Assembly (NCBI GenBank): GCA_963796055.1
Contig: CAWCKH010000003.1
Span: 384,001-448,000, forward strand
Origin: an uncultured delta proteobacterium
GTDB lineage: Bacteria > Myxococcota > Myxococcia > Myxococcales > Myxococcaceae
Direction of reading: 5' to 3'
DNA: 64,000 bases
The notes under the pieces were generated by a model that saw only the letters and a list, made by a program, of their open reading frames with translations, was not told where the DNA came from and made no database searches. Shown piece after piece: positions 17,518-39,647 of the stretch (the first letter of the stretch is position 1; the number at the start of each line of letters is the position of its first letter). Made by a program: the position numbers and the translations under genes.

Positions 17518-18594
17518 TCAGTACAGCGTCTGCAGCTCGGTCCCCGGGTAGAAGTGGGCGAGGATGGCCCGGTAGTCCTGGCCGGAGTCGGCCATCTCCT
17601 TGGCTCCCCACTGGGAGAGGCCGGCGCCGTGTCCCAGGCCGCGGCCGGTGAGCACGGCCCCGCCGCCCGAGCTGGGGGCCACGTCGAAGGCGAGGGAGCG
17701 AACCCGGTCGTACCCGAGCCGCTGGCGGAACTCGACCCCGCTGAGGCTCCTGCCCCCGAGCTCGAGTCGGCGGACGCGGCCGGTGGGTGTCCGCGCCGCA
17801 ACCCGGAGCTCGCCCCGACCGCCGCCGAAGGCCCGCTCCAGCGCGCCGGCCTCGAGGTCCGCCTTCCAGCGGGTGGCCGGCCCAGGGCGGCACTCGCAGG
17901 CGACGCTCTGGAGATAGGGCAGGTCGCGGCCGAGCGCATCGAGCCCGGTCTCGGTGTTCCCCTCGCAGGAGGCGTGGAAGTAGGCCTCGATGGGCGCCAG
18001 CTGGAAGGTGAGGACTTGCCCGGCGGTGGCAGCAGTGGCGGCGCGCGTCCGGGGGTTCTCGCGGTTCACCCCGCCGTAGACCTGGGCGAGCACGCTGCTG
18101 CCGAGGTGAACGGGCTGCCCGAGGGCGTCGATCTTCCGCTGGAGGGCGTAGGTGCGCGCGGCGACTGCCTGGGCCTTGAGGGCCTCCATGGGGAAGCCCA
18201 CCGGCATCTCGCCGCCGAGGACCGCGGCCACGTAGTCCTCGAGCGGGAGCACGTTGACCAGGAGTACCTTGCTGCCCCTGGGCAGGGCGACCACCTCGCC
18301 GCGGACCTCGGTGCTGCCGGCGCGGAGGGCGTGCCCGGTGTCGGAGGTGCGGAACCGGATCGCGCCCTCCACCCGCTCGCCCTCCACCTCCAGCGCGTCG
18401 CCGACGTGGCGGATGCGGACCTCGTCGCGGTCGAGCGGCTGGAACGGGCCGTCCTCGGAGTCCGGACCGAGCTGCAGCCCCTTTCCCCGGACGACGACCT
18501 CGCGCTCGGGGCGCTCACCCATCGCGATGCGGACGGTCTCGGCGGCGTGCGCGCTGGTGGCGATGAGGAGCGGAAGGAGGAGGACCGGGCGCAT
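17518..18594 (-). CDS. SpoIID/LytB domain protein (lytic transglycosylase-like)
   Basis: Signal peptide, LEDYVAAVLGGEMP, EALKAQAVAARTYA, QVYGG and GHGAGLSQWGA. Confidence 0.9.
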   Translation of the reverse strand: MRPVLLLPLLIATSAHAAETVRIAMGERPEREVVVRGKGLQLGPDSEDGPFQPLDRDEVRIRHVGDALEVEGERVEGAIRFRTSDTGHALRAGSTEVRGEVVALPRGSKVLLVNVLPLEDYVAAVLGGEMPVGFPMEALKAQAVAARTYALQRKIDALGQPVHLGSSVLAQVYGGVNRENPRTRAATAATAGQVLTFQLAPIEAYFHASCEGNTETGLDALGRDLPYLQSVACECRPGPATRWKADLEAGALERAFGGGRGELRVAARTPTGRVRRLELGGRSLSGVEFRQRLGYDRVRSLAFDVAPSSGGGAVLTGRGLGHGAGLSQWGAKEMADSGQDYRAILAHFYPGTELQTLY

Positions 18595-20729: not shown

Positions 20730-22142
20730 TCAGGCCCGGGCCTGCGCGCGCCACCACTCCTGGCCCGACTCGGGCAGCGTGTACACCGGGTCGTAGTACT
20801 CGTACCGCCGCTCGAGCGCGTAGGGGTCCGACAGCTCGATGCCCGTCCGGTAGTTCTTGGTCCAGTAGGAGATGCCGTGCTCGCGATCGTACTCCGCCAC
20901 CTGGTGCACCCAGCGCTTCCCCACGAACGGCACGTCACAGACGATGCGCGGCGTGGCGAACCCCGGCAGGTAGCCCATGATGTCGTGCTGGAGCTGCTGC
21001 GCCTCCGCCACCGACGTCCGCCAGTGCTCGGAGTTGGGGATGATGTCGCACATGTAAAAGTAATACGGGAGGATGTGTGCGTGGTCCTGCAGGGTGAAGC
21101 ACAGCTCCAGGAGATCCTTCGCCGTCGCGTTCACCCCGCGCAGCAGCACGCCCTGGTTCCGGATGTCACGGAACCCGGCATTCAGCACCGCATCGGCCGC
21201 CTTCTGCACCAGGGGGGTGAGCTGCCGGGCGTGGTTGACGTGGGTGTGGAGCGCGAGCTGCGCACCCCGCTCGAAGGCCTTCTTCGCCAGCCGGGCGAAC
21301 CCCTCGAGCACCTTGGGCTGGAGGAAGTGCTGTGGCAGCCCCATGAACCCCTTCGTGGCGAGCCGGATGTCACGGATGTTGGGAATGTCCAGCAGCTGGG
21401 AGACGAAGCTCTCCAGGGTCTGGATGGGGAGGTTCGCCACGTCGCCGCCCGAGACCACCACGTCGCGCACGCCGGGGGTCCGGCGGAGGTACTCGAGGAT
21501 CTTCTCGTAGCGCTCGGGCTGGGGCAGCGCGAAGCGATGCTTCTCCACCTGGGGCACGTCGTTGCCCACCAGGTCCATGCGGGTGCAGTGGCCGCAGTAC
21601 TGAGGACAGGTGGAGAGCATCTCGGCCAGCACCTTGGTCGGGTAGCGGTGGGTCAGCCCCTCCACCACCCACATGTCTGCCTCGTGAAGGCTGTCGCGGC
21701 TGGCGCGGGGGTGGTTCGGCCAGTCGGATCGCCGGTCGACGAAGGCCGGGAGCATGTACCTGCGCACCGGGCAGTGCCACAGGTCGTCCAGATCCATGGT
21801 GTTCAACATCTGCGGCGGGATGAGGATCGACATCGTCGCCCGCTCCCGCTGGTCCCGGTCGACGCTCGCCAGCAGCGTGTCGGGGATGAGGTCGCCGAGG
21901 GCGTCCTTCAATTCCCGGAGGTTCTTGACCGTGTGCCGCCGCTGCCACAGCGCGCTCTCCCAGTCGGCGCGGGAGGCGGAGCGGTAACCGGGAATGCGGG
22001 TCCAGTCCGGCTCCCGGAACTCCCGCTCGAGCGGATAGACGAAGGGCTGAGGCGCGGTGGCGGCCACCGGTGGGCGGCCGCCCGGCGACACGGCCGCGCC
22101 ACCGCGCGCGGGCGCCAGAGGGTTGAGGGGCTTCACGTCCAT
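20730..22142 (-). CDS. KamA-family radical SAM protein (lysine 2,3-aminomutase-like), divergent copy 2
   Basis: HRYPTKVL, CPQYCGHC, SGGD, HVNH, YYFYMCD and CDVPFVGK. Confidence 0.9.
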   Translation of the reverse strand: MDVKPLNPLAPARGGAAVSPGGRPPVAATAPQPFVYPLEREFREPDWTRIPGYRSASRADWESALWQRRHTVKNLRELKDALGDLIPDTLLASVDRDQRERATMSILIPPQMLNTMDLDDLWHCPVRRYMLPAFVDRRSDWPNHPRASRDSLHEADMWVVEGLTHRYPTKVLAEMLSTCPQYCGHCTRMDLVGNDVPQVEKHRFALPQPERYEKILEYLRRTPGVRDVVVSGGDVANLPIQTLESFVSQLLDIPNIRDIRLATKGFMGLPQHFLQPKVLEGFARLAKKAFERGAQLALHTHVNHARQLTPLVQKAADAVLNAGFRDIRNQGVLLRGVNATAKDLLELCFTLQDHAHILPYYFYMCDIIPNSEHWRTSVAEAQQLQHDIMGYLPGFATPRIVCDVPFVGKRWVHQVAEYDREHGISYWTKNYRTGIELSDPYALERRYEYYDPVYTLPESGQEWWRAQARA

Positions 22143-22213
22143 GAGATGAGCGGTCCTACTACAGAACGTGCAGCCCGGGGCTTCCCGGAGAGGGAGCGTC
22201 TCCAGACGGCCGG

Positions 22214-22909
22214 TCAGCCCCTCAGCCCACCCACCCGGAACATCAGCTCGAGGAAGAGCCCGTGAATGCCCAGCCCCCGGAGGGGCAGCGCGAAGACCGA
22301 TCCGTCCCGGAGACGGGCCGGGACCGAGAGCTGGACCAGCTCCTCGTGCTCCACCATGCCCTGCCCGTTGCAACGGCTGCAGGCGAACGGGCCGATGGAC
22401 CCCGAGCCGTGGCAGGAGCGGCAGGGGTAGAAGACCGGGACGGTGAGCTCGAGCAGCCCGCCGCGGGCGGCGCGGTCCGGTGGGAGCACCACCTCGAGCC
22501 GGAGCGCCTCCGGGCGCTGCGACTTGGGCAGGTCCGGATGGGTGAAGCTCCGGCGAAACCGGCTGGCCACCTCCTGAAGGCCGGGCCGGCGGACCGCGAA
22601 GTCGCGAAAGAGCGAGATGGGCACCGGCGCCAGCGGCTCGGCCTCGGGCCATGGCGCGGGCGTGATGGGCCGGCGGCGCTCCACCATGCGCTCGCCTCCA
22701 TCGCGCAGACCCGCATCGTAGGAAGCCCGGCGGTCCGGATCCGCGAGCACCCGGTACGCCGCGACGATGTCCTGGAAGAAGGGCATTCCTTGCGAGCCGG
22801 CGCGGTCCGGGTGGTAGCGCTGGACGAGCTCGCGAAACGCGCTGCGGATTCCGTGCGACGACTCGAGGGGATCGACCCCCAGGACGACGTAGTAGTTCCT
22901 GGTCTCCAT
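22214..22909 (-). CDS. Short J-domain protein with a zinc finger
   Basis: NYYVVLGV, YHPD, DPDRRASYD, CRSCHGSG and CSRCNGQG. Confidence 0.85.
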   Translation of the reverse strand: METRNYYVVLGVDPLESSHGIRSAFRELVQRYHPDRAGSQGMPFFQDIVAAYRVLADPDRRASYDAGLRDGGERMVERRRPITPAPWPEAEPLAPVPISLFRDFAVRRPGLQEVASRFRRSFTHPDLPKSQRPEALRLEVVLPPDRAARGGLLELTVPVFYPCRSCHGSGSIGPFACSRCNGQGMVEHEELVQLSVPARLRDGSVFALPLRGLGIHGLFLELMFRVGGLRG

Positions 22910-23078
22910 CGGCCCTCCGGCGGGCGAGCGACGGACCTCGGCCAGGAGGTCGGGGCAACTTCGCCCGAGCCAGAAGCGACCACTAACGCAGCCCGGGGCG
23001 CAGTCAAGCCTCGCCTGCCGGCCAGGTGGCGGACCGGTTGTTGCACCCCGGAGGGTGTCCGTCACCAGGAGACGCATC

Positions 23079-23681
23079 ATGGCCACCGTCCTCGTCGTCT
23101 ATGCCACCCGCGACGGGCAGACCCGGAAGATTGCCGAGCGCATCGCGACCGTTCTCCGGGTCCGCCGTCACGCCGTCGAGCTGCTCGACGCCGCCCGGCC
23201 GTCCCGCGAGCTGGACCTCGGGCGCTTCCAGGCGGTCTTCGTCGGCTCGCCGATCCACGCCCAGGGATACCTGCGACCCGTCGTTCGGTTCGTCCAGGAG
23301 CACCGCGCGGCGCTCGAGCGCGTCCCGACCTTGTTCTTTTCGGTGGGGCTCGCGGTGCTCAGCAAGGTGAGCGACGGCCGGGCGCAGACCATGGAGATCG
23401 TCGACAAGCTCATCGCCACCACCGGCTGGCGTCCCGGGCGGATCGAGCTGGTCGCCGGGGCGCTCCCGTACACCCGGTACAACTTCCTCGTTCGCTTCGT
23501 GATGCGGCGGATCTCGAAGAAGGAGGGCGGGGACACCGATACCTCGCGCGACTACGAGTACACCGACTGGAGCGCGGTCGACCGCTTCGCGCTCGAGCTC
23601 GTGGACGAGGCCACGGCGAGGCGCGCCCCCGGGGCACCGACCCCACCCACCCGGGGCACGGGCCCGGAGGCGCGGGCATGA
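23079..23681 (+). CDS. Flavodoxin-domain protein, HemG-like protoporphyrinogen oxidase
   Basis: VYATRDGQTRKIAE, FFSVGL, AGALPYTRY and DTSRDYEYTDW. Confidence 0.85.
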   Translation: MATVLVVYATRDGQTRKIAERIATVLRVRRHAVELLDAARPSRELDLGRFQAVFVGSPIHAQGYLRPVVRFVQEHRAALERVPTLFFSVGLAVLSKVSDGRAQTMEIVDKLIATTGWRPGRIELVAGALPYTRYNFLVRFVMRRISKKEGGDTDTSRDYEYTDWSAVDRFALELVDEATARRAPGAPTPPTRGTGPEARA

Positions 23682-24142
23682 GCGCGTCCCCGGATGGAGT
23701 CAGCCGCGCCTTCCAGACCTTTCTGGACGAGGCACCAGGACAGGCAGAGGCGTGGCTGGGCGCGGCCCGAAGGCTGGAGGAAGCCACCGCGCTCGACGAG
23801 AAGACCTTGCACCTTGCCTACTTGGCCGTGCTCGCGGCGATGCGCCTCCAGGGGGGCCTTCCGGCACATGTCCAGCTCGCCCGGGAGGCGGGCGCTTCGC
23901 GTGCGGAGATCGCGAGCGCGGTGCTGGTGGGACTCCCGGCCGCCGGGAACATGGTCATCCAGTCACTGCCCATCGCGCTCGCAGCCTACGATGCGGCGGA
24001 ACGTTCCAGCAGGGACGGTCAGGCGACGGCGCGAACGCAACCGGTGCGCCCCGGTCGACGAAGGGCGCAGCCACTGCAGAGGGGTCACTCGAAGCGGAGC
24101 GCGTCGATGGGATCCAGGCGCGAGGCCTTCCGCGCCGGGTAG
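23678..24142 (+). CDS. Carboxymuconolactone decarboxylase/AhpD-like protein
   Basis: ALDEKTLHLAYLAVLAA and HVQLAREAGASRAEIASAVLVGLPAAG; ATGA-coupled to the HemG-like gene; the tail overlaps the convergent gene. Confidence 0.8.
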   Translation: MSASPDGVSRAFQTFLDEAPGQAEAWLGAARRLEEATALDEKTLHLAYLAVLAAMRLQGGLPAHVQLAREAGASRAEIASAVLVGLPAAGNMVIQSLPIALAAYDAAERSSRDGQATARTQPVRPGRRRAQPLQRGHSKRSASMGSRREAFRAG

Positions 24143-25314
24143 AGGCCGAACACCACCCCCACCAGCGCGCTGAACCCCAGCGAGAGGACCACCGTCCCGG
24201 CGCGGATGATGGTGGGCCAGTGGAACTCGTGCGCCAGCAGCAGCGCTGCGCCGATGCCGACCGCCACGCCGATCAACCCGCCGCCCGCCGAGAGCGCGAG
24301 GGCCTCGGCCACGAACTGGGTCAGGATGTCGCCCGGCTTTCCCCCCACCGCCATGCGGATGCCGATCTCCCGCGTCCGCTCGGTGACGCTGACCAGCATG
24401 ATGTTCATGATGCCGATCCCACCCACCAGCAGCGAGACCGCGGCGATGCTGGCCAGCAGCGTGGTCAGTACCTGGGTGCCCTGGGCCTGGGCGCTGGCGA
24501 TCTCCGAGAGGTTCCGGACCGAGAAGTCGTCGTCGATGCCCGGGGCCAGCCGGTGCCGATCACGGAGGAGCCCGGCGATCTGCTGCTGCGCGCGACCGGT
24601 CGCGTCGGCCGACACCGCGCCCACGAAGATGGCGCCGGGGAGGAACTTGCTCAGCCCACCTTGGATCTTGGCCTGGAACGTGGTGACCGGAACGAAGGCC
24701 GCATCGTCGTAGTCCTGCCCCATGGGTGACTGGCCCTTCTTCGCCAGCACCCCGATGACCTGGAAGGGCACCATCTTGATCCGCACCGTGCGGCCCACCG
24801 GATTGGCGCCCGTACCGTAGAGCTTCTCCACCACCGTCTGCCCGAGCCACACCACCTTCGCCCCTGCGGTGACGTCCTCGGCGGTCATCCGCTGGCCAGC
24901 CGCGACGGACCAGTTCCGGATCTGGAAGTACTCGGGCGTCGTGCCCACCGCCGGGGTGGTCCAGTTCTGCTCCTCCGCCTGGACCACGCTCGCTGCCCGC
25001 AGCACCGGCGCGGCGAGCTTCACTGCGCTCAGCTCGGTCTGGATCGCCTTCAGGTCCTCCCAGGTCAGGGTGGGCTGGGTTCCGAATCCCCCTTGCATTC
25101 CACCGGTCGCCGTGGAGCCCGAGAGAACGATGAGGAGGTTGGTCCCCATCGACTCGAAGGTCTGCTGCACCCGGTACTTCGCGCCCTCGCCGATGGCGGT
25201 CATGGCGATCACCGCGGCCACCCCGATGACCACCCCGAGCGTTGTCAGGAAGGAGCGCAGCCGGTTGCGCCCGAGCGCACGGCCGGCGAGCCGCACCAGG
25301 GTGCCCGCTCTCAT
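24085..25314 (-). CDS. MacB-family ABC permease
   Basis: [44 protein letters not shown] and [15 protein letters not shown]. Confidence 0.92.
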
Positions 25315-26049
25315 GCGGTGGCCTCCGCCGGCATCGAGACCAGGCTGGGATCGGCCCGCATCGGGCTCTGCCGGCGGTCGCTGAGGATGCGTCCGTCGCG
25401 CATCCCCACCATCCGCCCGGCACAGCGGCCGATGTCCGCCTCGTGGGTGACCAGAAGGATGGTCACCCCTGCCCGGCCGAGCTCCTGGAAGATCTGCATC
25501 ACCTCCATGCTGGTGCGGGTGTCGAGCGCGCCGGTGGGCTCGTCGGCCACGATGAGTCGCGGGTCGTTCACCACTGCGCGGGCGATGGCGACCCGCTGCT
25601 GCTGTCCACCCGACAGCTGGTTCGGTGGATGCGCCGCGCGGTCGGCGAGGCCCACCCGCTCGAGGGCACCGAGCGCGCGCTCCCGCCGCTCCCGCGCGGG
25701 GAGCCCGGCGTATACCAGCGGCAGCTCCACGTTCTCCAGCGCGGTGGTCCGCGGGAGCAGGTTGAAGTGCTGGAAGACGAAGCCAATCTGTCGGTTACGC
25801 ACCTCGGCCAGACGCGCCCGCGAGAGCCCGCCCATCTCGGCGCCGCCGAGGCGGTACGTGCCCGAGGTGGGTCGATCCAGGCAGCCGACGATGTTCATCA
25901 AGGTCGACTTGCCCGAGCCGGAAGGGCCCATCACCGCCACGAACTCGCCCTCGTCGATGCGGAGGTCCACGTGTTGCAGCGCCGGGACCTCCACCTCGCC
26001 CATCCGGTAGATCTTGCTCACGTCCTCGAGCGGAGATCAGCGGCGCCAC
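25311..26049 (-). CDS. MacB/LolD-type ABC ATP-binding protein with an apparent +1 frameshift at about 26032
   Basis: [17 protein letters not shown] and ADEPTG. A GAGG SD precedes GTG 26049, and removing one base gives [14 protein letters not shown]. Confidence 0.88.
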
Positions 26050-26059
26050 CGGTACGCCT

Positions 26060-27331
26060 CTAGAAGACCCGGCCATAGCTGCCCGGTCCGCTCCTGGACG
26101 GCGCCACTGCCTCGGTGACCACGGCGTCGCCGTGGTCGAGGCCTCCCTCGAGCACCTCCGAGAGCACGCCATCCGAGACGCCGATGCGAACAGGCACTGG
26201 ACGCGGCTGGCCGTCCCGGAGCACCCACAGCAGCCGCTGGTCCGGCCGGAGGACCGGAACGGCAGGAGCGCCGCTCACCATCGCCGGGGGAGCCCGGAAG
26301 CGCACCGCCGCGTTCGGCACCCGGAGGACGTCGGCCCGGTCGGCGTAGACCACCGTCACGTTCGCGGTCATCCCGGGCTTCAGCTTGAGCTCGAGGTTGT
26401 CCACGTCGATGACCGCGTCGTAAGTGACCACGTTCTGCACGGTCTGGGGCGCGTTGCGCACCTCCCGGATGGTCCCGCGGAACGTCTCCGCGGGGTAGGC
26501 GTCGACGGTGAAGCTCGCCGCCATCCCCGCGGCGATGCGCCCCACGTCCGCCTCGGCCACGCTGGTGTCCACTTGCATTCTCCGGAGGTCCTGGGCCACG
26601 AGGAACAGCGTGGGCGACTGAAGGGTGGCGGCGACGGTCTGCCCCACGTCCACGTTCCGCGAGATGACGACTCCGTCGATTGGCGCGACGATGGTGGTGT
26701 AGGCCAGGTTGATCTCCGCCTGGTGCAACGTGGCCCGGGCGTCCGCCTCCTGCGCCAGCGCGGCGCGGCCCTGCGCCTGCGAGACCCGAAGTGCCGTCTC
26801 GCTGTCGTCCAGCGCGGACTGCGACACCAGGGACTCCTTGCGCAGGGCCCGGTTTCGCTCGGTCTGGATCCGGGCATTGGCGAGCTGCGACTCGGCGAGC
26901 TGACGGTTAGCGGCCGCGGTCTGGACCTTCGCCCTCGCCTGCTCGACGGCTGCCGCGTACAGCGAGGGGTCGATGCGGGCGACCACCTGCCCCTTGCGGA
27001 CGACCGTGTTGAAGTCGGCGCCGAGCCACTGGATGCGTCCAGAGATCTGGCTCCCCACCTGCACCGTGACCAGCGCCGAGAGCGTCCCCGAGGCAGTCAC
27101 CCGCGCCTGGATCGGCCCCCGAGAGACCAGGGTGGTCTCGAACTTGAAGACGCTCGGCTTGACCTGGCGTGGACGGAGCGCCTCGAACACCAGCGCCACG
27201 ACGACCGCCAGCAGCACCAGCCCCCCCGCGAGCAAGGGACGCCAGTGCCGTCGCAACCAGCCGCTGGCCGGACGGTCGCGACGGTCGGGCTCCTCGCCCG
27301 TGGCGACCACTCCGCGGTGCACCGATTCCAT
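26060..27331 (-). CDS. MacA-type periplasmic adaptor (membrane fusion protein)
   Basis: One TM segment, VQVGSQISG, IVAPIDGVVISRNVDVGQTVAA and LKPGMTA. Confidence 0.9.
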   Translation of the reverse strand: MESVHRGVVATGEEPDRRDRPASGWLRRHWRPLLAGGLVLLAVVVALVFEALRPRQVKPSVFKFETTLVSRGPIQARVTASGTLSALVTVQVGSQISGRIQWLGADFNTVVRKGQVVARIDPSLYAAAVEQARAKVQTAAANRQLAESQLANARIQTERNRALRKESLVSQSALDDSETALRVSQAQGRAALAQEADARATLHQAEINLAYTTIVAPIDGVVISRNVDVGQTVAATLQSPTLFLVAQDLRRMQVDTSVAEADVGRIAAGMAASFTVDAYPAETFRGTIREVRNAPQTVQNVVTYDAVIDVDNLELKLKPGMTANVTVVYADRADVLRVPNAAVRFRAPPAMVSGAPAVPVLRPDQRLLWVLRDGQPRPVPVRIGVSDGVLSEVLEGGLDHGDAVVTEAVAPSRSGPGSYGRVF

Positions 27332-27523
27332 GCTCCACCATGCTGCATCGCGCATGCCCGTGAACCCCTGGAAGATCGCGGAGATGTCCACGGCGCGGCG
27401 CAGTTCCTGCGCGACGCAGCTCCCCGGCGCAGGGCAGGCGCATCGACTTCGCCCGAGCCACCTCCGGCGCACGCTGGACCGCAGAGCCCGGGGCCCACGA
27501 GTTGCACGTGGGCCTTCCCCGGC

Positions 27524-28780
27524 ATGGACGAACGACCGGACCGCGTGGCCGGGGCGATGACCCTGATGACCGGCTTCGCCGAGCGCACCGGTGTGGTCGG
27601 CGAGCGGCCACAGGTCCGGTACCTGTGGACGGACGCCTTCGCGCTCTGCAACCTCGTCGGGCTGGCGCGGGTCCTGGGCAGGCCCGGGCTGCTCCGGCTC
27701 GCCGGGCTGCTGGTGGCCCGCGTCCACCACACGCTCGGACGTCACCGGCCGGACGACGCTCGCGCCGGCTGGATCAGCGGCGCCAGCGACGCCGAGGGCG
27801 AGGCACACCCCACCCGGGGCGGACTGCGCATCGGCAAGCGGCTCCCGGAGCAGGCTCCGGGTCAGCCGGCGGACGACCGCCTGGAGTGGGACCGCGACGG
27901 GCAATACTTTCACTACCTGACGCGCTGGATGCACGGGCTCGACCAGCTCGCGTGCGCAACTGGCGACGCGTCCCTCAACCTCTGGGCCCGCGAGCTCGCC
28001 GCCGCGGCCTTCGCCGGGTTCGTGCTGCCCGGACCGGAAGCGCCCTCTCGGCTGGCCTGGAAGATGAGCATCGACCTCTCGCGGCCGCTGGTCGCCTCGA
28101 TGGGACAGCACGATGCCCTGGACGGGGCCGTCGCCTGCGCCCAGCTACGGCAGACCGCGGCGGCGTTCGGCGCTCCTCCGGAGGGACCCGGGCTGGAGCA
28201 CGAGGAGCGGGTACTGCGGGACATCGCCGAGCGCGTCGCCTGGCCCACCGCGGACCCCCTCGGAATCGGAGGCCTCCTGGCCGATGCCGCGTGGACCGCC
28301 CAGCTCGTCGCCGCCGGGGCGTTCGACGCCCCGCTCCTCCTGCCGCGGCTGCTGGAGTCTGCGCTCCCGGGACTGCAGCACCTCCGCGCCGTCTCCGAGC
28401 TCGAGGGCGACCCGGCCCGCCGGCTGCCCTTTCGTGAGCTGGGGCTGGCCATCGGCCTCGAGGCGCTCGGGGTCGTCGACCTCGCGCTGCAAGCCGCGCC
28501 CGACCGCTTCGCCGAACGAGAACGGACGAAGCGGATGCTCCGCAGCCTCCAGGAGCACCTGCCGTTCGGTGCGGCGCTCCGCGCCTTCTGGCTCGAGCCC
28601 CGGAACCAGAGAGCGCCGACCTGGAGCGACCACCTGGACATCAACGCGGTGATGCTCGCCACGAGCCTGGTGCCGGAGGGTTACCTGGTGCTGCGGGCTC
28701 CCGAGCCGTCGCCGGACGGCGCCGCGGCCGGGGGCGCTCCGGAGCTCACTTCACCGCGCCGGTCGTCATCCCCGAGATGA
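27524..28780 (+). CDS. Conserved-looking hypothetical protein (RYLWTDAF / DGQYFHYL type)
   Basis: Protein-like ORF with RYLWTDAF, GGLRIGK, DGQYFHYLTRWMH and HLDINAVMLATSL blocks; start could also be ATG 27557. Confidence 0.75.
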   Translation: MDERPDRVAGAMTLMTGFAERTGVVGERPQVRYLWTDAFALCNLVGLARVLGRPGLLRLAGLLVARVHHTLGRHRPDDARAGWISGASDAEGEAHPTRGGLRIGKRLPEQAPGQPADDRLEWDRDGQYFHYLTRWMHGLDQLACATGDASLNLWARELAAAAFAGFVLPGPEAPSRLAWKMSIDLSRPLVASMGQHDALDGAVACAQLRQTAAAFGAPPEGPGLEHEERVLRDIAERVAWPTADPLGIGGLLADAAWTAQLVAAGAFDAPLLLPRLLESALPGLQHLRAVSELEGDPARRLPFRELGLAIGLEALGVVDLALQAAPDRFAERERTKRMLRSLQEHLPFGAALRAFWLEPRNQRAPTWSDHLDINAVMLATSLVPEGYLVLRAPEPSPDGAAAGGAPELTSPRRSSSPR

Positions 28781-29861
28781 AGTAGTCCAGTGACAGCGCG
28801 TACACGATGACCACCGGGATGGACCCGAGCACCGCCGCGGCCATCAGCGGGCCCCAGAAGTAGACGTCCCCGCGCACCATGTCGACGGTGATGCCCACCG
28901 GGAGCGTCCGGTTGAAGGTCGAGCTGATGAAGGTCAGCGCGTAGACGTACTCCTGGAAGGACAGGGTGAAGGCGAAGATGGCCGCGGTGAGGATGCCCGG
29001 GAGCACCACCGGGATGACCACCAGCCGCAGCATCTGCAGCCGGGTCGCCCCGTCGAGCAGCGCCCGCTCCTCGATCTCCTTGGGCACGCTCCGGAAGAAC
29101 CCCATCAGCAGCCAGGTGCAGAAGGGAATGGTGAAGGTGGGGTAGCTGAGGATCAGCGACCAGATGCTGTTGTCCAGCTTGAGCGCGCCCACGAACTGCG
29201 AGAAGGGGATGAAGAGGATGGTGGACGGGATGAGGTAGGTGAGGAAGATCGAGATGCCGATCGCGCTGTTCCCGGCGAAGCTCAGCCGGGCCAGGCCGTA
29301 GGCCGCCGGGACCGCGAAGACCAGGGTGATCAGAACCACCATCAGCCCGGTGATCAGGCTCACCTGCATCCAGCGCCAGAATGGGGTGGTGACCAGATAG
29401 CGATAGTGGGTGAGGCTGGGGCTGCGCACATGGATCACCCCCACGACGTCGTTCGGATGGGCCACGTTGCCTGCCGGCACGTCGATCTCGCTCAGGACTC
29501 CGTCCACCGGGCTGAACACCGGCTGATCCCCCACGAAGGCGATCGGCGTGGGGTGACGCTCGCTGTCGGAGCGGGTGGTGTGCGATCCGGGCCCCACGTT
29601 CCAGCGGATCGGACCCTCGGCGTACGAGGCGGGGATGATGATGTCCTTGTGGTAGGGCCGCCCGGTCACGTCGACCTGGCTGAACCAGAACGGGTTCCGC
29701 TGCAGATCGTAGAGGTTGGCATCCGCCTTCAGCGAGGTGACCAGCATCCAGTAGAAGGGGAAGAGCGCAAAGAACAGGAACGGCAGCATCCCTACCCACG
29801 AGGCCAGGTGGGGGCGGAAGCGGCGCCAGAGCAGACGGGTGCGAACGCTGGGAGCCACCAC
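28746..29861 (-). CDS. Carbohydrate ABC permease (MalG-like) with an inserted periplasmic domain
   Basis: LFPFYWML, EAA loop EIEERALLDGA, and C-terminal GAVK. Confidence 0.9.
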   Translation of the reverse strand: MVAPSVRTRLLWRRFRPHLASWVGMLPFLFFALFPFYWMLVTSLKADANLYDLQRNPFWFSQVDVTGRPYHKDIIIPASYAEGPIRWNVGPGSHTTRSDSERHPTPIAFVGDQPVFSPVDGVLSEIDVPAGNVAHPNDVVGVIHVRSPSLTHYRYLVTTPFWRWMQVSLITGLMVVLITLVFAVPAAYGLARLSFAGNSAIGISIFLTYLIPSTILFIPFSQFVGALKLDNSIWSLILSYPTFTIPFCTWLLMGFFRSVPKEIEERALLDGATRLQMLRLVVIPVVLPGILTAAIFAFTLSFQEYVYALTFISSTFNRTLPVGITVDMVRGDVYFWGPLMAAAVLGSIPVVIVYALSLDYFISGMTTGAVK

Positions 29862-29865
29862 CTCG

Positions 29866-31197
29866 TCAGGCCTCCTTCCTGAGGAAGCGCAAGATCAGGA
29901 ACACCATCACCGCCATGAGCGGGAACATGAAGAGCGACGTCGCCGCGCCCTTCCCCAGGTAACCGGCGTTCACCCCCAGCTGGTACGCGTACGTCGCGAG
30001 CACCTGGGTCTGATCGAACGGCCCCCCCTTGGTGATGATCCAGATGGTGTTGAAGTCGGTGAAGCTGAAGATCACCGAGAAGAGGAGTGACACCATCAGG
30101 ATGGGACGGACCATCGGACCGATGATGTAGAGGAACCGCTGGAAGGCGTTGGCGCCGTCCAGCCGGGCGCGCTCGAGGATCTCGTCGGGGATCGCGGTGA
30201 GTCCGGCCAGGATGACGATGGCGGTGAACGGGAACCCACGCCACACGTTCACCATCACCACGCTGAACATTGCCCACTGGGGGTCGCCCCGGAAATTGAT
30301 GATGTTCGCCGGGCTGAGGATGCCCCAGTGCACCAGGCACCAGTTGATGACGCTGTAGGTGGAGTCGAGGATCCACAGCCAGGCCTGGGCGCTGATCGCG
30401 ATGGGGATGACCCAGGGGATGACCACCAGGCCACGGAGCAGCCGGCGGGCCCCGAACTTCCGGTTGAGGAGCAGCGCGCAGGGCACGCCGATCATCAACT
30501 TCAAGATCTCCGTCCCGAAGGTGTACTTGAAGGTGTTGACCACCGCGAGCCGGAAGTTGGGGTCCTGCACCACCCCGGTGCCGTTGGTCCGGATCTGCGT
30601 GTTGGCCTTGACCAGGAAGGTCGACTCCAGAGCCTTCTTCAGCGCCGCCCGGTCAGGAAACGGACCGAGGCGGATCGGCTCTTCCGGGGCATGCGCCACC
30701 ACCGCGAATCCGCCCTTGGCCGGATGCACCAGCCAGTCGAGCTCGTTCACCACCGTGTCTGCCTGGAACTCGGCGTCCGAGGCGCTCTCCATGGCGAAGA
30801 GCGGGATGGTGCGCCCGGCGATCGCCACCGAGGTCCGGAAGAGCGCGCTGTCGGGGGTGGTCTCGAGCTTCGCCCCGCTCCGGGCCTGCAGCAGCGCGTC
30901 CGCCTCGGCGCGGGTGGGCACGGTGGCGATGACGAAGTCGTTGGCCCGGACCTCGTAGCTGACCACCTTCGAGTAGTTGTCCAGACCAACCCAGTTCCAT
31001 TTGAGGTGCCCGGCCTCGGCGTCGGTCAGGCTGAGCCAGATCGCCATCAGGAAGGGGTAGGCGATGAAGACGGAGAGGTAGAGAACCGCCGGCAGCACCA
31101 GCACGTATCCCAGGGGCGCTTCCCGCTCGAGGAACGGAGTGCGGGGGACGGCGGGCTGCTCCTCGAGGCGCGCCTGCGCTGCGGGAAGGGTCCTCAG
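29866..31197 (-). CDS. Carbohydrate ABC permease (MalF-like) with an inserted periplasmic domain; start uncertain (possibly CTG)
   Basis: VGLDNY, PWVIP, WRGFPF, EILERARLDGA and TKGGP. Confidence 0.88.
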   Translation of the reverse strand: MRTLPAAQARLEEQPAVPRTPFLEREAPLGYVLVLPAVLYLSVFIAYPFLMAIWLSLTDAEAGHLKWNWVGLDNYSKVVSYEVRANDFVIATVPTRAEADALLQARSGAKLETTPDSALFRTSVAIAGRTIPLFAMESASDAEFQADTVVNELDWLVHPAKGGFAVVAHAPEEPIRLGPFPDRAALKKALESTFLVKANTQIRTNGTGVVQDPNFRLAVVNTFKYTFGTEILKLMIGVPCALLLNRKFGARRLLRGLVVIPWVIPIAISAQAWLWILDSTYSVINWCLVHWGILSPANIINFRGDPQWAMFSVVMVNVWRGFPFTAIVILAGLTAIPDEILERARLDGANAFQRFLYIIGPMVRPILMVSLLFSVIFSFTDFNTIWIITKGGPFDQTQVLATYAYQLGVNAGYLGKGAATSLFMFPLMAVMVFLILRFLRKEA

Positions 31198-32279
31198 AGC
31201 GCAAACTCCGTCTGCCGGTCGAAGAGGTGCATCTGCGCGGTGTCGAAGAAGAGGTCCACGCTCTGGTGTGGCTTCAGCTCTCCCTGGAGCTCGGTCTCGA
31301 TCTGGAGCAGGCCCGCTTCGCACCGGGCGGTGATGATGGCCTCGTGCCCCAGCGGCTCGACCACGTCGATCACCGCGGGGACCTTCACCCGGGTCCCGTT
31401 GCCCTGGCCACCGAGCTGGATGTGCTCGGGGCGGATACCCACGATCACCGAGCGTCCGCTGGAGCCGGTGATCCGCGGGCGTGGGACCGGCAGGGTGAGG
31501 CTTCCCTTCAGGTCCACCGAGAGGCCCGCCCCCTCCCCTCTCAGCTCGCCTTCGAAGAAGTTCATCGGCGGCGTTCCGATGAACCCGGCCACGAAGCGAT
31601 TCGCCGGACTCCGGTAGGCCTCGAGCGGGGTGGCCACCTGGCAGATCTTCCCCTTGTCCATGATCACAATCCGGTCGCCCATGGTCATCGCCTCGACCTG
31701 GTCGTGGGTGACGTAGATCATGGTGGACTTCACGCTCTGGTGGAGCCGCTTGAGCTCGGTCCGCATGTGGACCCGGAGCTTGGCGTCGAGGTTGGACAGC
31801 GGCTCGTCGAAGAGCAGCACCCCGGCCTGGCGACACAGCGCCGCGCCCACCGCCACCCGCTGGCGCTGGCCGCCGGAGAGGGCCCGGGGCTTGCGCTGGA
31901 GCAGGTCGCTCAGGCCGAGGATGCCGGCCGCCTCCTTCACCCGGCGGTCGATCTCCGACTTCGGCATCCGGCGCAGCTGCAGGGAGAAGGCCATGTTCCG
32001 GTACACCGTCATGTGCGGGTAGAGCGCGTAGCTCTGGAACACCATGGCGATGTCGCGGTCCTTCGGCGGCAGGTGGGTGATCGACCTGCCGCCGATGCTG
32101 ATGTCCCCACCGCTCACGTCCTCCAGACCGGCGATCATCCGCAGCGTGGTCGTCTTCCCGCAGCCGGAGGGCCCCACCAGGATCACGAACTCGCGATCCT
32201 TGACGGTGAGGTCCACCCCGGCCACGGCGGCCACGTCGCCGAAGCGCTTCTCGAGTCCGGTGAGGACGACCTCCGCCAT
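31194..32279 (-). CDS. Sugar ABC ATP-binding protein (MalK/UgpC-like)
   Basis: GPSGCGKTT, FQSYALYPHM, LSGGQRQR, DEPLSNLD, YVTHDQ and a TOBE-like tail. Confidence 0.93.
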   Translation of the reverse strand: MAEVVLTGLEKRFGDVAAVAGVDLTVKDREFVILVGPSGCGKTTTLRMIAGLEDVSGGDISIGGRSITHLPPKDRDIAMVFQSYALYPHMTVYRNMAFSLQLRRMPKSEIDRRVKEAAGILGLSDLLQRKPRALSGGQRQRVAVGAALCRQAGVLLFDEPLSNLDAKLRVHMRTELKRLHQSVKSTMIYVTHDQVEAMTMGDRIVIMDKGKICQVATPLEAYRSPANRFVAGFIGTPPMNFFEGELRGEGAGLSVDLKGSLTLPVPRPRITGSSGRSVIVGIRPEHIQLGGQGNGTRVKVPAVIDVVEPLGHEAIITARCEAGLLQIETELQGELKPHQSVDLFFDTAQMHLFDRQTEFAL

Positions 32280-33583
32280 CAGCCCGCCACTGCCCGGAGC
32301 TTCTTCTCCGCGTCGTCCATGGCGGCGCGGGGCGATTTCCCGCCGTTGGCCACCTCGGCGAACATGGTGGGGATGATGTACTTGGCGTACATGCTGGTGG
32401 CGGTCTTGGTCATCGGGCCGGGGTAGCCGATGAACTTCACCCACTCGTTGAAGTCTTGCTCGATCTGAAGCTTGGGCTCGTGTCCGATGACCGGCATGGG
32501 CTTCTTGAGGAAGTTCTTCAGGAAGGGATGGTTGTAGCCGGTGGACGCTTCCATTCCCTCCAGGCCCTCGGCGTTCATCTGGTACAGGAACTCCTTGGCC
32601 AGGTCCTGCACCTGGCTGAACTTGTAGATGCCGTAGGACATCGTCCGCGCACCCCCGATGCGCCCCGCGGCGCCGAGCGGCGGCGGCTGGATCTCCAGCG
32701 CCTTGTAGACGTCCGGGTTGTCCTTGGCCGCGGTCCGGTAGGCGCTGATGGGATTGCAGACCATCGAGCCCTTGCCCGAGGCGATGAAGCGGTTGTTGGA
32801 GGTGTCGTCCCAGCTGAGCACCTCGTCGGTCATCGTCTCCTTGTAGAGCGCGGTGCCCCACTTGAGCACGTCGACGATCTCCTTCCTGGCGAAGGCGATG
32901 TTGCCCTGCTTGTCGAACATGTATGCCTTGAAGGCGAGCATGATCGGGTAGAGGTCGTCGTTGGCGTCCGGGGTCTGCGAGTAAGGAATGCCGATGGGAT
33001 GGCCGATCTTCTTCAGCTTCCCGCCGATGCGGATGATGTCCTCGTAGGTGGTCTTGGAGTTGTAGTCCTCCTTGACCTGGTCGAGGTACGCCCGGTTCAC
33101 GATCCACGGGTAGCGGATGTACCAGTGGGGGATGGCCAGCCACTTCCCCTTCACCACCGCGATGCTCTCCGAACCGGGGCTCCAGCCGCCGAACTGCTTG
33201 CCGAGCCGGTTGGCCACGTCGGTGACGTCGACCTCCACCTGATCATAGAGCCAGGCCCCGGTGCCGTTGAGGTGGAAGATGTCGTGGCCCCCGCCCCGGG
33301 AGATGTCCGCGGCGATGGCGGTGGGCAGGTCGGCGGTGGCGACGAAGTCGACCTCCACCTTGCAGTTGTGCTTCTCGCCGAACTTCTTGGCGAAGCCGCT
33401 GAAGTACGTGTCGTACGCCGGCACGAAGTGCTTCCAGTGCACGATCTTGAGCACCTTCTCCGTCTGCGCCGAGGCCTTCCGGGAGAAGATCGTCGGCGCA
33501 GCGAGCGCTGCTCCGACTCCCAGCGAGCCCTGGATGAACGTCCGGCGCTTCAGCAGACCCTTCTTCCGCGTTCCATCACTCAC
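32279..33583 (-). CDS. Tat-exported extracellular solute-binding protein (family 1)
   Basis: AGGAGG SD before GTG; KRRTFI twin-Arg signal ending ASA; first gene of the CUT1 operon. Confidence 0.88.
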   Translation of the reverse strand: MSDGTRKKGLLKRRTFIQGSLGVGAALAAPTIFSRKASAQTEKVLKIVHWKHFVPAYDTYFSGFAKKFGEKHNCKVEVDFVATADLPTAIAADISRGGGHDIFHLNGTGAWLYDQVEVDVTDVANRLGKQFGGWSPGSESIAVVKGKWLAIPHWYIRYPWIVNRAYLDQVKEDYNSKTTYEDIIRIGGKLKKIGHPIGIPYSQTPDANDDLYPIMLAFKAYMFDKQGNIAFARKEIVDVLKWGTALYKETMTDEVLSWDDTSNNRFIASGKGSMVCNPISAYRTAAKDNPDVYKALEIQPPPLGAAGRIGGARTMSYGIYKFSQVQDLAKEFLYQMNAEGLEGMEASTGYNHPFLKNFLKKPMPVIGHEPKLQIEQDFNEWVKFIGYPGPMTKTATSMYAKYIIPTMFAEVANGGKSPRAAMDDAEKKLRAVAG

Positions 33584-34163: not shown

Positions 34164-34172
34164 ACGAAAAAA

Positions 34173-34286
<114 letters not shown>

Positions 34287-34289
<3 letters not shown>

Positions 34290-34320
34290 AAATTGTCACT
34301 GCAGAAAAATTGTCACTGCA
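34287..34320. repeat. Perfect 17-bp tandem duplication GAAAAATTGTCACTGCA x2
   Basis: Read directly at 34287-34303 and 34304-34320. Confidence 0.95.
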
Positions 34321-34468
34321 TACGAAGGGTAGATTCAATTTCTGCCGAGAGATGTGCCGTCTCGAGTCAGCGTCCTGGAGCTCTCAACGAGCTCCGGACC
34401 TCGACCTTGACCTCGAATCCCGTACTCCCCACGGATCGACTCCCGGGGAGCATGCAAGAAACAGAGGT

Positions 34469-37442
<2,974 letters not shown>

Positions 37443-37679
37443 ACCTTTGTATCTCGAACGCCCCCACCGATCAGGGCCGTGGCCCCAGGGGGATTGTTGA
37501 AACTCGAGATCAAGGTCCAGGTCCCCGGCTCTTCGCCACGGGACGCTGAATTTCGAGACGTCTGACTCCGAGCTCTCCTCCAGGGCGCCTCACGGCGGCC
37601 CGGAACCGAGCACGGAGTAGAACTCTCAGCAGAAATTGAATTCTACCCTTCGTATGCAGTTTTCAAAGAGCGGTTGGTG

Positions 37680-37752
37680 TGGAGCTGATCGGGTTCGAAC
37701 CGACGACATCCAGCTTGCAAAGCTGGCGCTCTCCCAGCTGAGCTACAGCCCC
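37680..37752 (-). tRNA. tRNA-Ala(TGC); CCA not encoded
   Basis: GGGGCTGTAGCTCAGCTGGGAGAGCG...TTGCAA...GGTTCGAACCC...CTCCA. Confidence 0.95.
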
Positions 37753-37800
37753 AGGAAGAGAAGAGGACGATCGCCACCGCCCAGCGTCAAGAAACTGACT

Positions 37801-37874
37801 TGGGCCTAGGTGGACTCGAACCACCGACCTCGCGCTTATCAGGCGCGCGCTCTAGCCAGCTGAGCTATAGGCCC
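37801..37874 (-). tRNA. tRNA-Ile(GAT); CCA not encoded
   Basis: GGGCCTATAGCTCAG...CTGATAA...GGTTCGAGTCC...GGCCCA. Confidence 0.95.
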
Positions 37875-38091
37875 GGCTCCCGCGCCCGAGCGCTCCACGT
37901 ACCAACTAGAGGGTTCAAAGAGCGAGCCTTCTCGAAGCTCGGCCTCTCAAAACCGGACAGCAAGTCCATCCTGACGACTGCGGGGGCACTGAAGCCCCTG
38001 GAAACCACGGTTGACCTAAAGTCGACCACTCCGAGGTTGCCCTCGGCGGGATGGGCCATGCCGGCGCCGGAGCGCCGACCCCATCCCAGGG

Positions 38092-39647
<1,556 letters not shown>

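Follow-up and report, generated by a model that had tools for sequence, protein, structure and literature searches.

A CUT1-type importer operon with a domain inserted into each permease

We analysed a 64,000-nucleotide stretch of DNA, hereafter the window, from an uncultured member of the Myxococcaceae (GenBank assembly GCA_963796055.1, contig CAWCKH010000003.1, positions 384,001 to 448,000). It contains a four-gene operon that encodes a solute-binding protein, a MalK/UgpC-type ATPase, a MalF-like permease and a MalG-like permease, and each of the two permeases is enlarged by an inserted domain (Table 1). All four proteins match Pfam or NCBIfam families of such importers. In the ATPase, ABC_tran, OB_MalK and TOBE_2 all score over their cut-offs, and the two BPD_transp_1 permeases have the EAA coupling loops ERARLDGA and ERALLDGA; SugA, MalF and AlgM1 match the MalF-like permease on either side of its insert, or after it. 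By every feature that could be tested, the operon is that of an ATP-binding cassette (ABC) importer of the CUT1 type. The binding protein has a twin-arginine-type leader (RRTFI; Pfam TAT_signal at E 5e-4, under its cut-off), its signal ends in an A-S-A cleavage-like site, and it is likely to be soluble in the periplasm. Its profile matches 31 PDB sequences of CUT1 binding proteins, none of them close (best E 1e-17); as a single-sequence query against the PDB it gave no match.

We set the limits of the inserts against insert-less relatives, including a paralogous operon of the same genome with permeases of 309 and 281 amino acids (aa). This paralogous operon (L009 7509-11781, G000:C4) has the same gene order, and its binding protein, MalF core and MalG core are 32%, 41% and 55% identical to those of the window. 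The insert of the MalF-like permease is 130 aa long and is flanked by VGLDNYSKV and VVQDPNF, and that of the MalG-like permease is 87 aa long and is flanked by NPFWF and PSLTHY. Both sit in the loop after the first transmembrane segment (TM1), the former after the G-x-x-N-Y motif and the latter before the matching L-x-H-Y motif. Both are hydrophilic, with a highest 19-residue hydropathy of 1.17 (MalF-like) and 0.78 (MalG-like) as compared with 1.65-2.55 for membrane segments, and from the homology with SugA, MalF and MalG we infer that they face outward, into the periplasm. We rejected an origin of the inserts by artefact or frameshift.

These results are in good agreement with an earlier note on this DNA, which had described a compact four-gene CUT1 operon with a Tat-exported (twin-arginine translocation) binding protein and permeases of about 443 and 371 aa, each with a polar insert after TM1: the family matches, the twin-arginine motif and the absence of a hydrophobic segment from either insert all bear this out. 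The note also placed the inserts at equivalent positions, which holds for the loop that they share but not for their location within it, on opposite sides of the conserved G-x-x-N-Y/L-x-H-Y motif.

The MalF-like gene has no ATG, GTG or TTG ahead of TM1, and its 443-aa form requires a CTG start; the database gene call is 410 aa long. In 75 of 77 loci, the MalF-like frame keeps register with the base that precedes the ATPase stop. In most of the 77 the start is an overlapping or nearby ATG, GTG or TTG, and in 13, the window included, CTG is the sole option. Because the register is kept so widely, the CTG start is likely; the 443-aa form is likewise the likely product, and the 410-aa call is probably truncated. 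The CTGA overlap probably means that the ATPase and MalF-like genes are translationally coupled, an arrangement that is conserved. Where CTG is the only possible MalF-like start, database calls cut into TM1. Promoter and terminator scans gave nothing exceeding chance.

Table 1. Genes and features of the importer operon (positions are those of the window)
Feature	Position	Strand	Remarks
Solute-binding protein gene	32279..33583	-	434 aa; SBP_bac_1 E 1e-13, 52.3 bits against a cut-off of 26 (Pfam)
MalK/UgpC-type ATPase gene with OB/TOBE tail	31194..32279	-	361 aa; UgpC subfamily model 455.6 bits, cut-off 432
MalF-like permease gene	29866..31197	-	443 aa; BPD_transp_1 E 5e-17
MalG-like permease gene	28746..29861	-	371 aa; BPD_transp_1 E 3e-14
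MalF-like insert, residues 79-208	30574..30963	-	predicted folded domain, pLDDT 93.6
MalG-like insert, residues 61-147	29421..29681	-	predicted biotinyl/lipoyl (barrel-sandwich hybrid) fold, pLDDT 92.0
Shortened hairpin IAFVGDQPVFSP at the lipoyl/biotinyl modified-lysine site	29508..29543	-	turn without lysine
Likely MalF-like start codon CTG, sharing CTGA with the ATPase stop	31194..31197	-	register kept in 75/77 loci

The MalG-like insert is predicted to be a cofactor-less lipoyl-type module

The AlphaFold2 model of the MalG-like insert (112 sequences; predicted local distance difference test score, pLDDT, 92.0) is a continuous 87-residue domain with no long helix, and its best structural match is 2d5d (Z 10.8, root mean square deviation 1.2 Å over 65 residues). 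The barrel-sandwich domains found by a wide structure search were of the biotinyl, lipoyl and adaptor-protein kinds, with 34 chains at a Z of at least 8, and all matches down to Z 6.6 were barrel-sandwich hybrids. At the level of sequence, the best PDB profile match is the E2 lipoyl domain 1lab (E 0.0068), and Biotin_lipoyl is matched weakly by 26 of 35 insert members at E <= 0.5 (best E 4e-4), the window copy scoring 14 bits against a cut-off of 22.1. PDB searches with a single sequence of each of the two inserts gave no match for one and 1 match (E 1.4) for the other.

The likeness to E2 lipoyl and biotin carboxyl carrier domains has two parts: the barrel-sandwich hybrid itself, at Z 9.6-10.8 for 2D5D, 1BDO and 1IYV and 6.0 for 1LAB, and a colinear sequence with the patterns E.G.I..W and SP..G.L..I.V..G. 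The insert is also colinear with a lipoyl domain of the host genome. It differs from these domains in its predicted periplasmic location and at the site of the modified lysine, where a six-residue insertion precedes the hairpin and the hairpin is four residues shorter. Lysine occurs at MalG-like residues 110-113 in 0, 0, 1 and 1 of 121 rows, and at residue 114, on the return strand of the hairpin, in 28 of 121. Because the hairpin is shortened and lysine is nearly absent from the turn, we rejected lipoylation or biotinylation of the insert and read its predicted fold as a cofactor-less lipoyl-type module.

Conservation within this domain is high: 34 of its 87 columns are at least 90% conserved, and 11 of these are polar or charged (D64, H71, K72, D73, S79, T95, R97, D99, S100, S117 and N137). 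This seems to exceed the needs of the fold alone, and the conserved polar columns suggest a binding surface.

The MalF-like insert is predicted to fold and has no whole-domain structural match

The AlphaFold2 model of the MalF-like insert (116 sequences, pLDDT 93.6) has three helices and nine strands, arranged as three beta-beta-beta-alpha-like units that lie between two long terminal strands. Internal repeats are weak by profile comparison (E 0.006-0.24, probability at most 6%), and the three-unit reading thus rests on the predicted secondary structure. We found no whole-domain structural match to this model: a wide VIA-align search and a second look gave best Z scores of 5.4 and 5.3, for one unit, and the best match covered 45 residues of one unit (Z 5.4), with dsRBD, AP2, PH, DegV and UPF0339 rows tied. 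Foldseek against the PDB and viral models gave no match at E <= 0.001, the insert profile gave none among PDB sequences at E <= 10, and the ESM Atlas gave no usable match for two versions of the insert. The overall fold as modelled may be new, bearing in mind that absence of a match is no proof.

UPF0339/DUF1508 (YegP-like) and other beta-beta-beta-alpha units, including dsRBD and AP2, superpose on one unit of the insert (model residues ~30-78) at Z 4.3-5.4, with 6Q2Z at Z 4.8 and 3BID at Z 4.3, level with rows of unrelated proteins. Such matches cover roughly one third of the domain, at scores typical of a common arrangement, and comparison with 13 DUF1508 repeats by hhalign revealed no profile similarity (E 0.22). 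We likewise rejected membership of MalF_P2. The insert profile compares with E. coli P2 at E 0.22, the P2 family is matched in 0 of 33 members, and the insert lies after the G-x-x-N-Y motif with one helix preceding it. At the level of structure, MalF P2 is absent from the matches listed, which may leave some families out. The MalF-like insert is less conserved than its MalG-like counterpart, with 19 conserved columns of 130 and four conserved polar positions. As the earlier note had supposed, the two inserts are unrelated. Neither belongs by sequence to a described permease loop family, and both model as folded rather than disordered (pLDDT 94 and 92).

Both inserts are kept together within one small clade

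The size of the inserts is nearly constant in all 120 homologues listed for each permease, at 125-137 aa for the MalF-like permease (one row being the window's own protein) and 87-88 aa for the MalG-like one. The MalG-insert profile matches 129 proteins or clusters among 8000 candidates, and the 120 listed are permeases or short fragments. The MalF-insert profile matches 18 representatives among 1.84 billion proteins; ten of these were inspected, of which nine are fragments or chimeras of this permease family and one is repetitive. Two candidates were set aside: this repetitive sequence, P0270, a four-stretch MalF-insert profile match that looks spurious, and a weak insert match in G367 (E 4e-4) that contains a stop and has no surrounding permease.

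Among species genomes we found 39 loci with the MalG insert, all from metagenome-assembled genomes, in Myxococcota, Acidobacteriota (mostly Thermoanaerobaculia), two Burkholderiales and one Methylomirabilis. The earlier note had proposed asking whether the inserts co-occur across genomes, and they do. The MalF insert is present in all 37 loci that have the MalF loop on the contig (one of them frameshifted), the other two of the 39 being cut off before it. Conversely, in metagenomes the MalG insert accompanies the MalF insert in 38 of 38 loci with at least 1.2 kb of downstream DNA; the remaining 15 of 53 MalF-insert loci have shorter downstream DNA, and 3 of these 15 still show the MalG insert. 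The inserts therefore co-occur strictly within one small clade that spans four phyla.

Within the host phylum, 7 of 401 genomes, all of 4.7-5.5 Mb, have a MalG core at 83-100% identity, and all seven carry the inserts. The next-nearest relatives in the phylum have at most 57% core identity, and the 23 examined (53-57%) are all without either insert; a MalG core of this class, to which the paralogue belongs, is present in all eight sampled genomes of the same genus. In a tree built from 37 joined cores, with four cut or frameshifted loci left out, the phyla are mixed and many forks are open, and the window groups with two Myxococcaceae records. This pattern is suggestive of transfer.

Individual loci show further peculiarities. 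In L020 (5560-6850) several frameshifts run through the MalF-like gene and its neighbours and look like assembly errors, L030 (1655-3025) contains, in tandem, another binding-protein gene that is closely related (75%), and in L017 (7938-11471) and L026 (2-1910) a second, insert-less CUT1 operon directly adjoins the first.

Genes for glycolate and lactate catabolism recur beside the operon

The recurrent neighbours of the operon are malate synthase A, glcD-like oxidases and lutAB. Of the genome loci, 27 of 36 have at least one of these in their flanks, as do 20 of 29 of the metagenome loci (47 of 65 in all, counting loci with at least 1.5 kb of flank; 3 genome and 24 metagenome loci were shorter), against a background of 66 of 5435 14-kb windows of the host genome (1.2%). 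The glycolate and lactate genes are upstream and divergent in some loci and downstream and co-oriented in others, and occur beside the operon in both Myxococcota and Acidobacteriota. In two loci the operon also adjoins a lactate permease gene, and other neighbours include lutC-like genes, branched-chain ABC genes and acyl-CoA ligase genes. The neighbouring genes make glycolate, lactate or a similar small hydroxy acid the likely cargo.

More distant relatives of the binding protein are found on plasmids: one (26%) in an erythronate/threonate cluster of Sinorhizobium medicae, one beside kdgK (31%) and one in an uninformative context (35%). Our literature search, which covered mostly openly accessible work and few subscription journals, returned nothing pertinent on glycolate or sugar-acid ABC importers and no publication that describes a lipoyl fold in the permease of an importer.

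Other features of the window and of related loci

A full ribosomal RNA (rRNA) operon (16S, two tRNAs, 23S and 5S; window 34172-39647, minus strand) is followed, after about 590 bases on the same strand, by the binding-protein gene. This adjacency is kept in 6 of 7 close relatives tested, and read-through from the rRNA operon into the importer operon is possible in the window's subclade. On the other side, a long open frame (window 26132-28780, plus strand) converges on the operon and overlaps the stop region of the MalG-like gene; its stretch 26570-28687 has no Pfam match at E 1e-8, and a similar gene is found in loci L068 and L011. Downstream (window 20730-27732) lie a MacAB-like efflux set of adaptor, ATPase and permease, a flavodoxin-like gene, a DnaJ-domain gene and a radical SAM (S-adenosylmethionine) gene whose motifs suggest that it is KamA-like. 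Parts of this region are syntenic in L068, L070 and L071. In six related loci, among them L015 (8441-9202), L018 and L019, the operon adjoins a gene for an excisionase-like helix-turn-helix fused to a phosphotransferase system EIIA domain, often after a tautomerase-like gene.

Discussion

Our tentative reading, to which we give a probability of roughly 0.4, is that the operon encodes a binding-protein-dependent importer in which paired periplasmic arms hold the binding protein over the pore, and that its cargo is glycolate- or lactate-like. Under this reading the exported binding protein would capture the hydroxy acid and would stay tethered by both arms, ATP binding would open the pore outward, and the imported acid would be oxidised by GlcDEF together with malate synthase A, or by LutABC. 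A docking role is the most parsimonious reading because the domains occupy the P2/P1 loops, are kept paired and accompany a binding protein that is likely to be soluble.

The closest precedent is E. coli MalFGK2-MalE (PDB 2R6G), which has the same four kinds of subunit and a folded domain in the loop before the permease core. According to PMC6906923, the MalE N-lobe is in contact with the MalF P2 and MalG P1 loops at every stage of the cycle, and P2 on its own binds MalE at 7-22 μM. By analogy with these loops, we infer that the inserts would contact the binding protein, and clamping of the binding protein is the one role of the periplasmic 'crown' imagined in the earlier note that stays a best guess. 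The two systems differ in that E. coli P2, of ~180 aa and described as immunoglobulin-like, precedes a G-x-x-N-F motif and follows two extra N-terminal helices, whereas the window's MalF-like domain of 130 aa comes after the motif, is unrelated by sequence and has no extra helices before it; E. coli MalG lacks a folded P1 domain, whereas the window's MalG-like permease has its 87-aa domain. The passages on MalF and MalG in PMC13543919 make no mention of inserts of this kind.

Large loops in both permeases are already known. According to PMC2246101, Thermotoga Mal1 and Mal2 have large hydrophilic loops of this kind, a MalF P2-type loop and a MalG insert between TM1 and TM2, with function given as unknown. 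Compared by description, that MalG insert of ~500 aa has no known similarity, whereas the window's has 87 aa and a predicted lipoyl fold. To call the operon an undescribed system, as the earlier note did, is thus an overstatement: it is a normal importer with add-on domains, and our analysis defines no new kind of system. What it adds is the paired MalF domain, the strict co-occurrence of the inserts and the link to glycolate and lactate.

Several observations weigh against docking arms and a hydroxy-acid cargo. Relative to the G-x-x-N-Y motif, the MalF insert and E. coli P2 lie on opposite sides, and their sequences are unrelated, so that the analogy is positional only. Insert-less relatives, one of them in the same genome, share the four-gene layout, and the arms are therefore dispensable for this kind of importer; moreover, the co-occurrence amounts to one inherited event in one clade, not to independent events. 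As for the cargo, no glc or lut genes adjoin the operon in the window's own subclade (0 of the 7 loci that have flank), where it follows the rRNA operon instead, and in the host the malate synthase-glcD cluster lies on a different contig. The neighbour counts overstate the association, the loci being related. The solved relatives listed for the binding protein are sugar binders or unassigned. In two loci a lactate permease lies beside the operon, where the ABC importer could carry another cargo.

Rather unlikely, in our view, is an arrangement in which the inserts bind each other or a third envelope protein, forming a MalF-MalG cap or an adaptor that reaches an outer-membrane channel, as in efflux adaptors. 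In its favour, the two inserts are strictly paired, the two long terminal strands of the modelled MalF domain could make a stalk, and AcrA, EmrA, MacA and HlyD use the same cofactor-less lipoyl-like fold as a periplasmic structural module (Z 8.3-10.1, with EmrA, AcrA and MacA as matches to the MalG insert). However, in these adaptors the domain is split by a helical hairpin, is joined to a beta-barrel domain and serves export, whereas the window's domain lacks the hairpin, is continuous and colinear with dehydrogenase E2 domains, and is placed inside an importer permease. A porin O/P-type gene does adjoin the operon, but in just 6 of 92 loci, and a domain of 90-130 residues seems too short to span the periplasm. 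A bolder combination, which we would be surprised to see borne out, is a trans-envelope machine in which a lysine-less dehydrogenase lipoyl domain and a new three-repeat fold were recruited together, the arms working as an efflux adaptor in reverse that connects importer and binding protein with a porin of the outer membrane; if this were true, glycolate or lactate would be scavenged at very low concentration.

It is unlikely that one or both domains bind the cargo or a precursor of it, such as an oligomer or ester yielding glycolate or lactate, and so raise its concentration at the pore. The conserved polar and aromatic residues of the MalG insert (Y70, W87, H71, K72, D73, R97 and D99) would suit such a site, and the pseudo-threefold MalF domain, as modelled, could hold a central one. 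Nevertheless, every operon whose contig extends that far encodes a complete binding protein, the MalF insert has only its four conserved polar positions, and no carbohydrate-binding fold is among the structural matches listed.

We consider very improbable a possibility that the earlier note had raised, namely that the inserts make up a crown by which the importer is anchored to peptidoglycan or glycans of the wall are captured, with wall-derived sugars being imported by a predator. SPOR is matched weakly in 3 of 33 MalF inserts (best E 0.013; the window copy reaches 12.5 bits against a cut-off of 21), and a 16-column match to the SPOR strand-helix has E 0.019 and a probability of 2.4%; every SPOR score is under the Pfam cut-off. 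SPOR structures, like those of MalF P2, are absent from the structural matches listed for the insert, which may leave some families out. A putative glucoamylase-family gene occurs in five loci of another subclade. The window has a SpoIID-like gene (17521-18594, minus strand; 89% identical to the copy in L070), which is also near the operon in two loci of the window's subclade, but it lies ~10 kb from the operon and is not conserved across the family. Pfam scanning of the remaining neighbours (95 clusters) named no wall-recycling enzyme apart from the SpoIID-like gene in those two loci, and none of NagZ, AnmK, MurQ, an amidase or a lytic transglycosylase; the genes that do recur serve glycolate and lactate catabolism, which speaks against wall-derived sugars as cargo. 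A link to predation fares no better, given that the seven genomes of the phylum with the system are all of 4.7-5.5 Mb and that sampling of the host family's 9-12 Mb members did not turn it up, whereas it is common in Acidobacteriota.

Least probable of all is neutrality, with inserts that an ancestor gained a single time and passed on without their serving transport: they are confined to a single small clade (the MalG insert in 129 clusters, the MalF insert in 18 representatives) and insert-less relatives occur in many genomes, but their constant length, their 34 and 19 near-invariant columns (MalG and MalF insert, respectively) and the retention of both in every testable locus across four phyla argue otherwise.

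If the docking-arm reading is correct, the operon would present a compact, testable case of importers gaining docking arms for their binding protein, through reuse of an enzyme module without its cofactor and through a domain that has no solved whole-fold match. The insert-less paralogue in the same genome provides a natural control. Finally, the reading predicts that a branch of transporters from uncultured Myxococcota and Acidobacteriota, to which every annotation gives the name of 'sugar' permeases, carries a particular class of cargo, namely glycolate and lactate.

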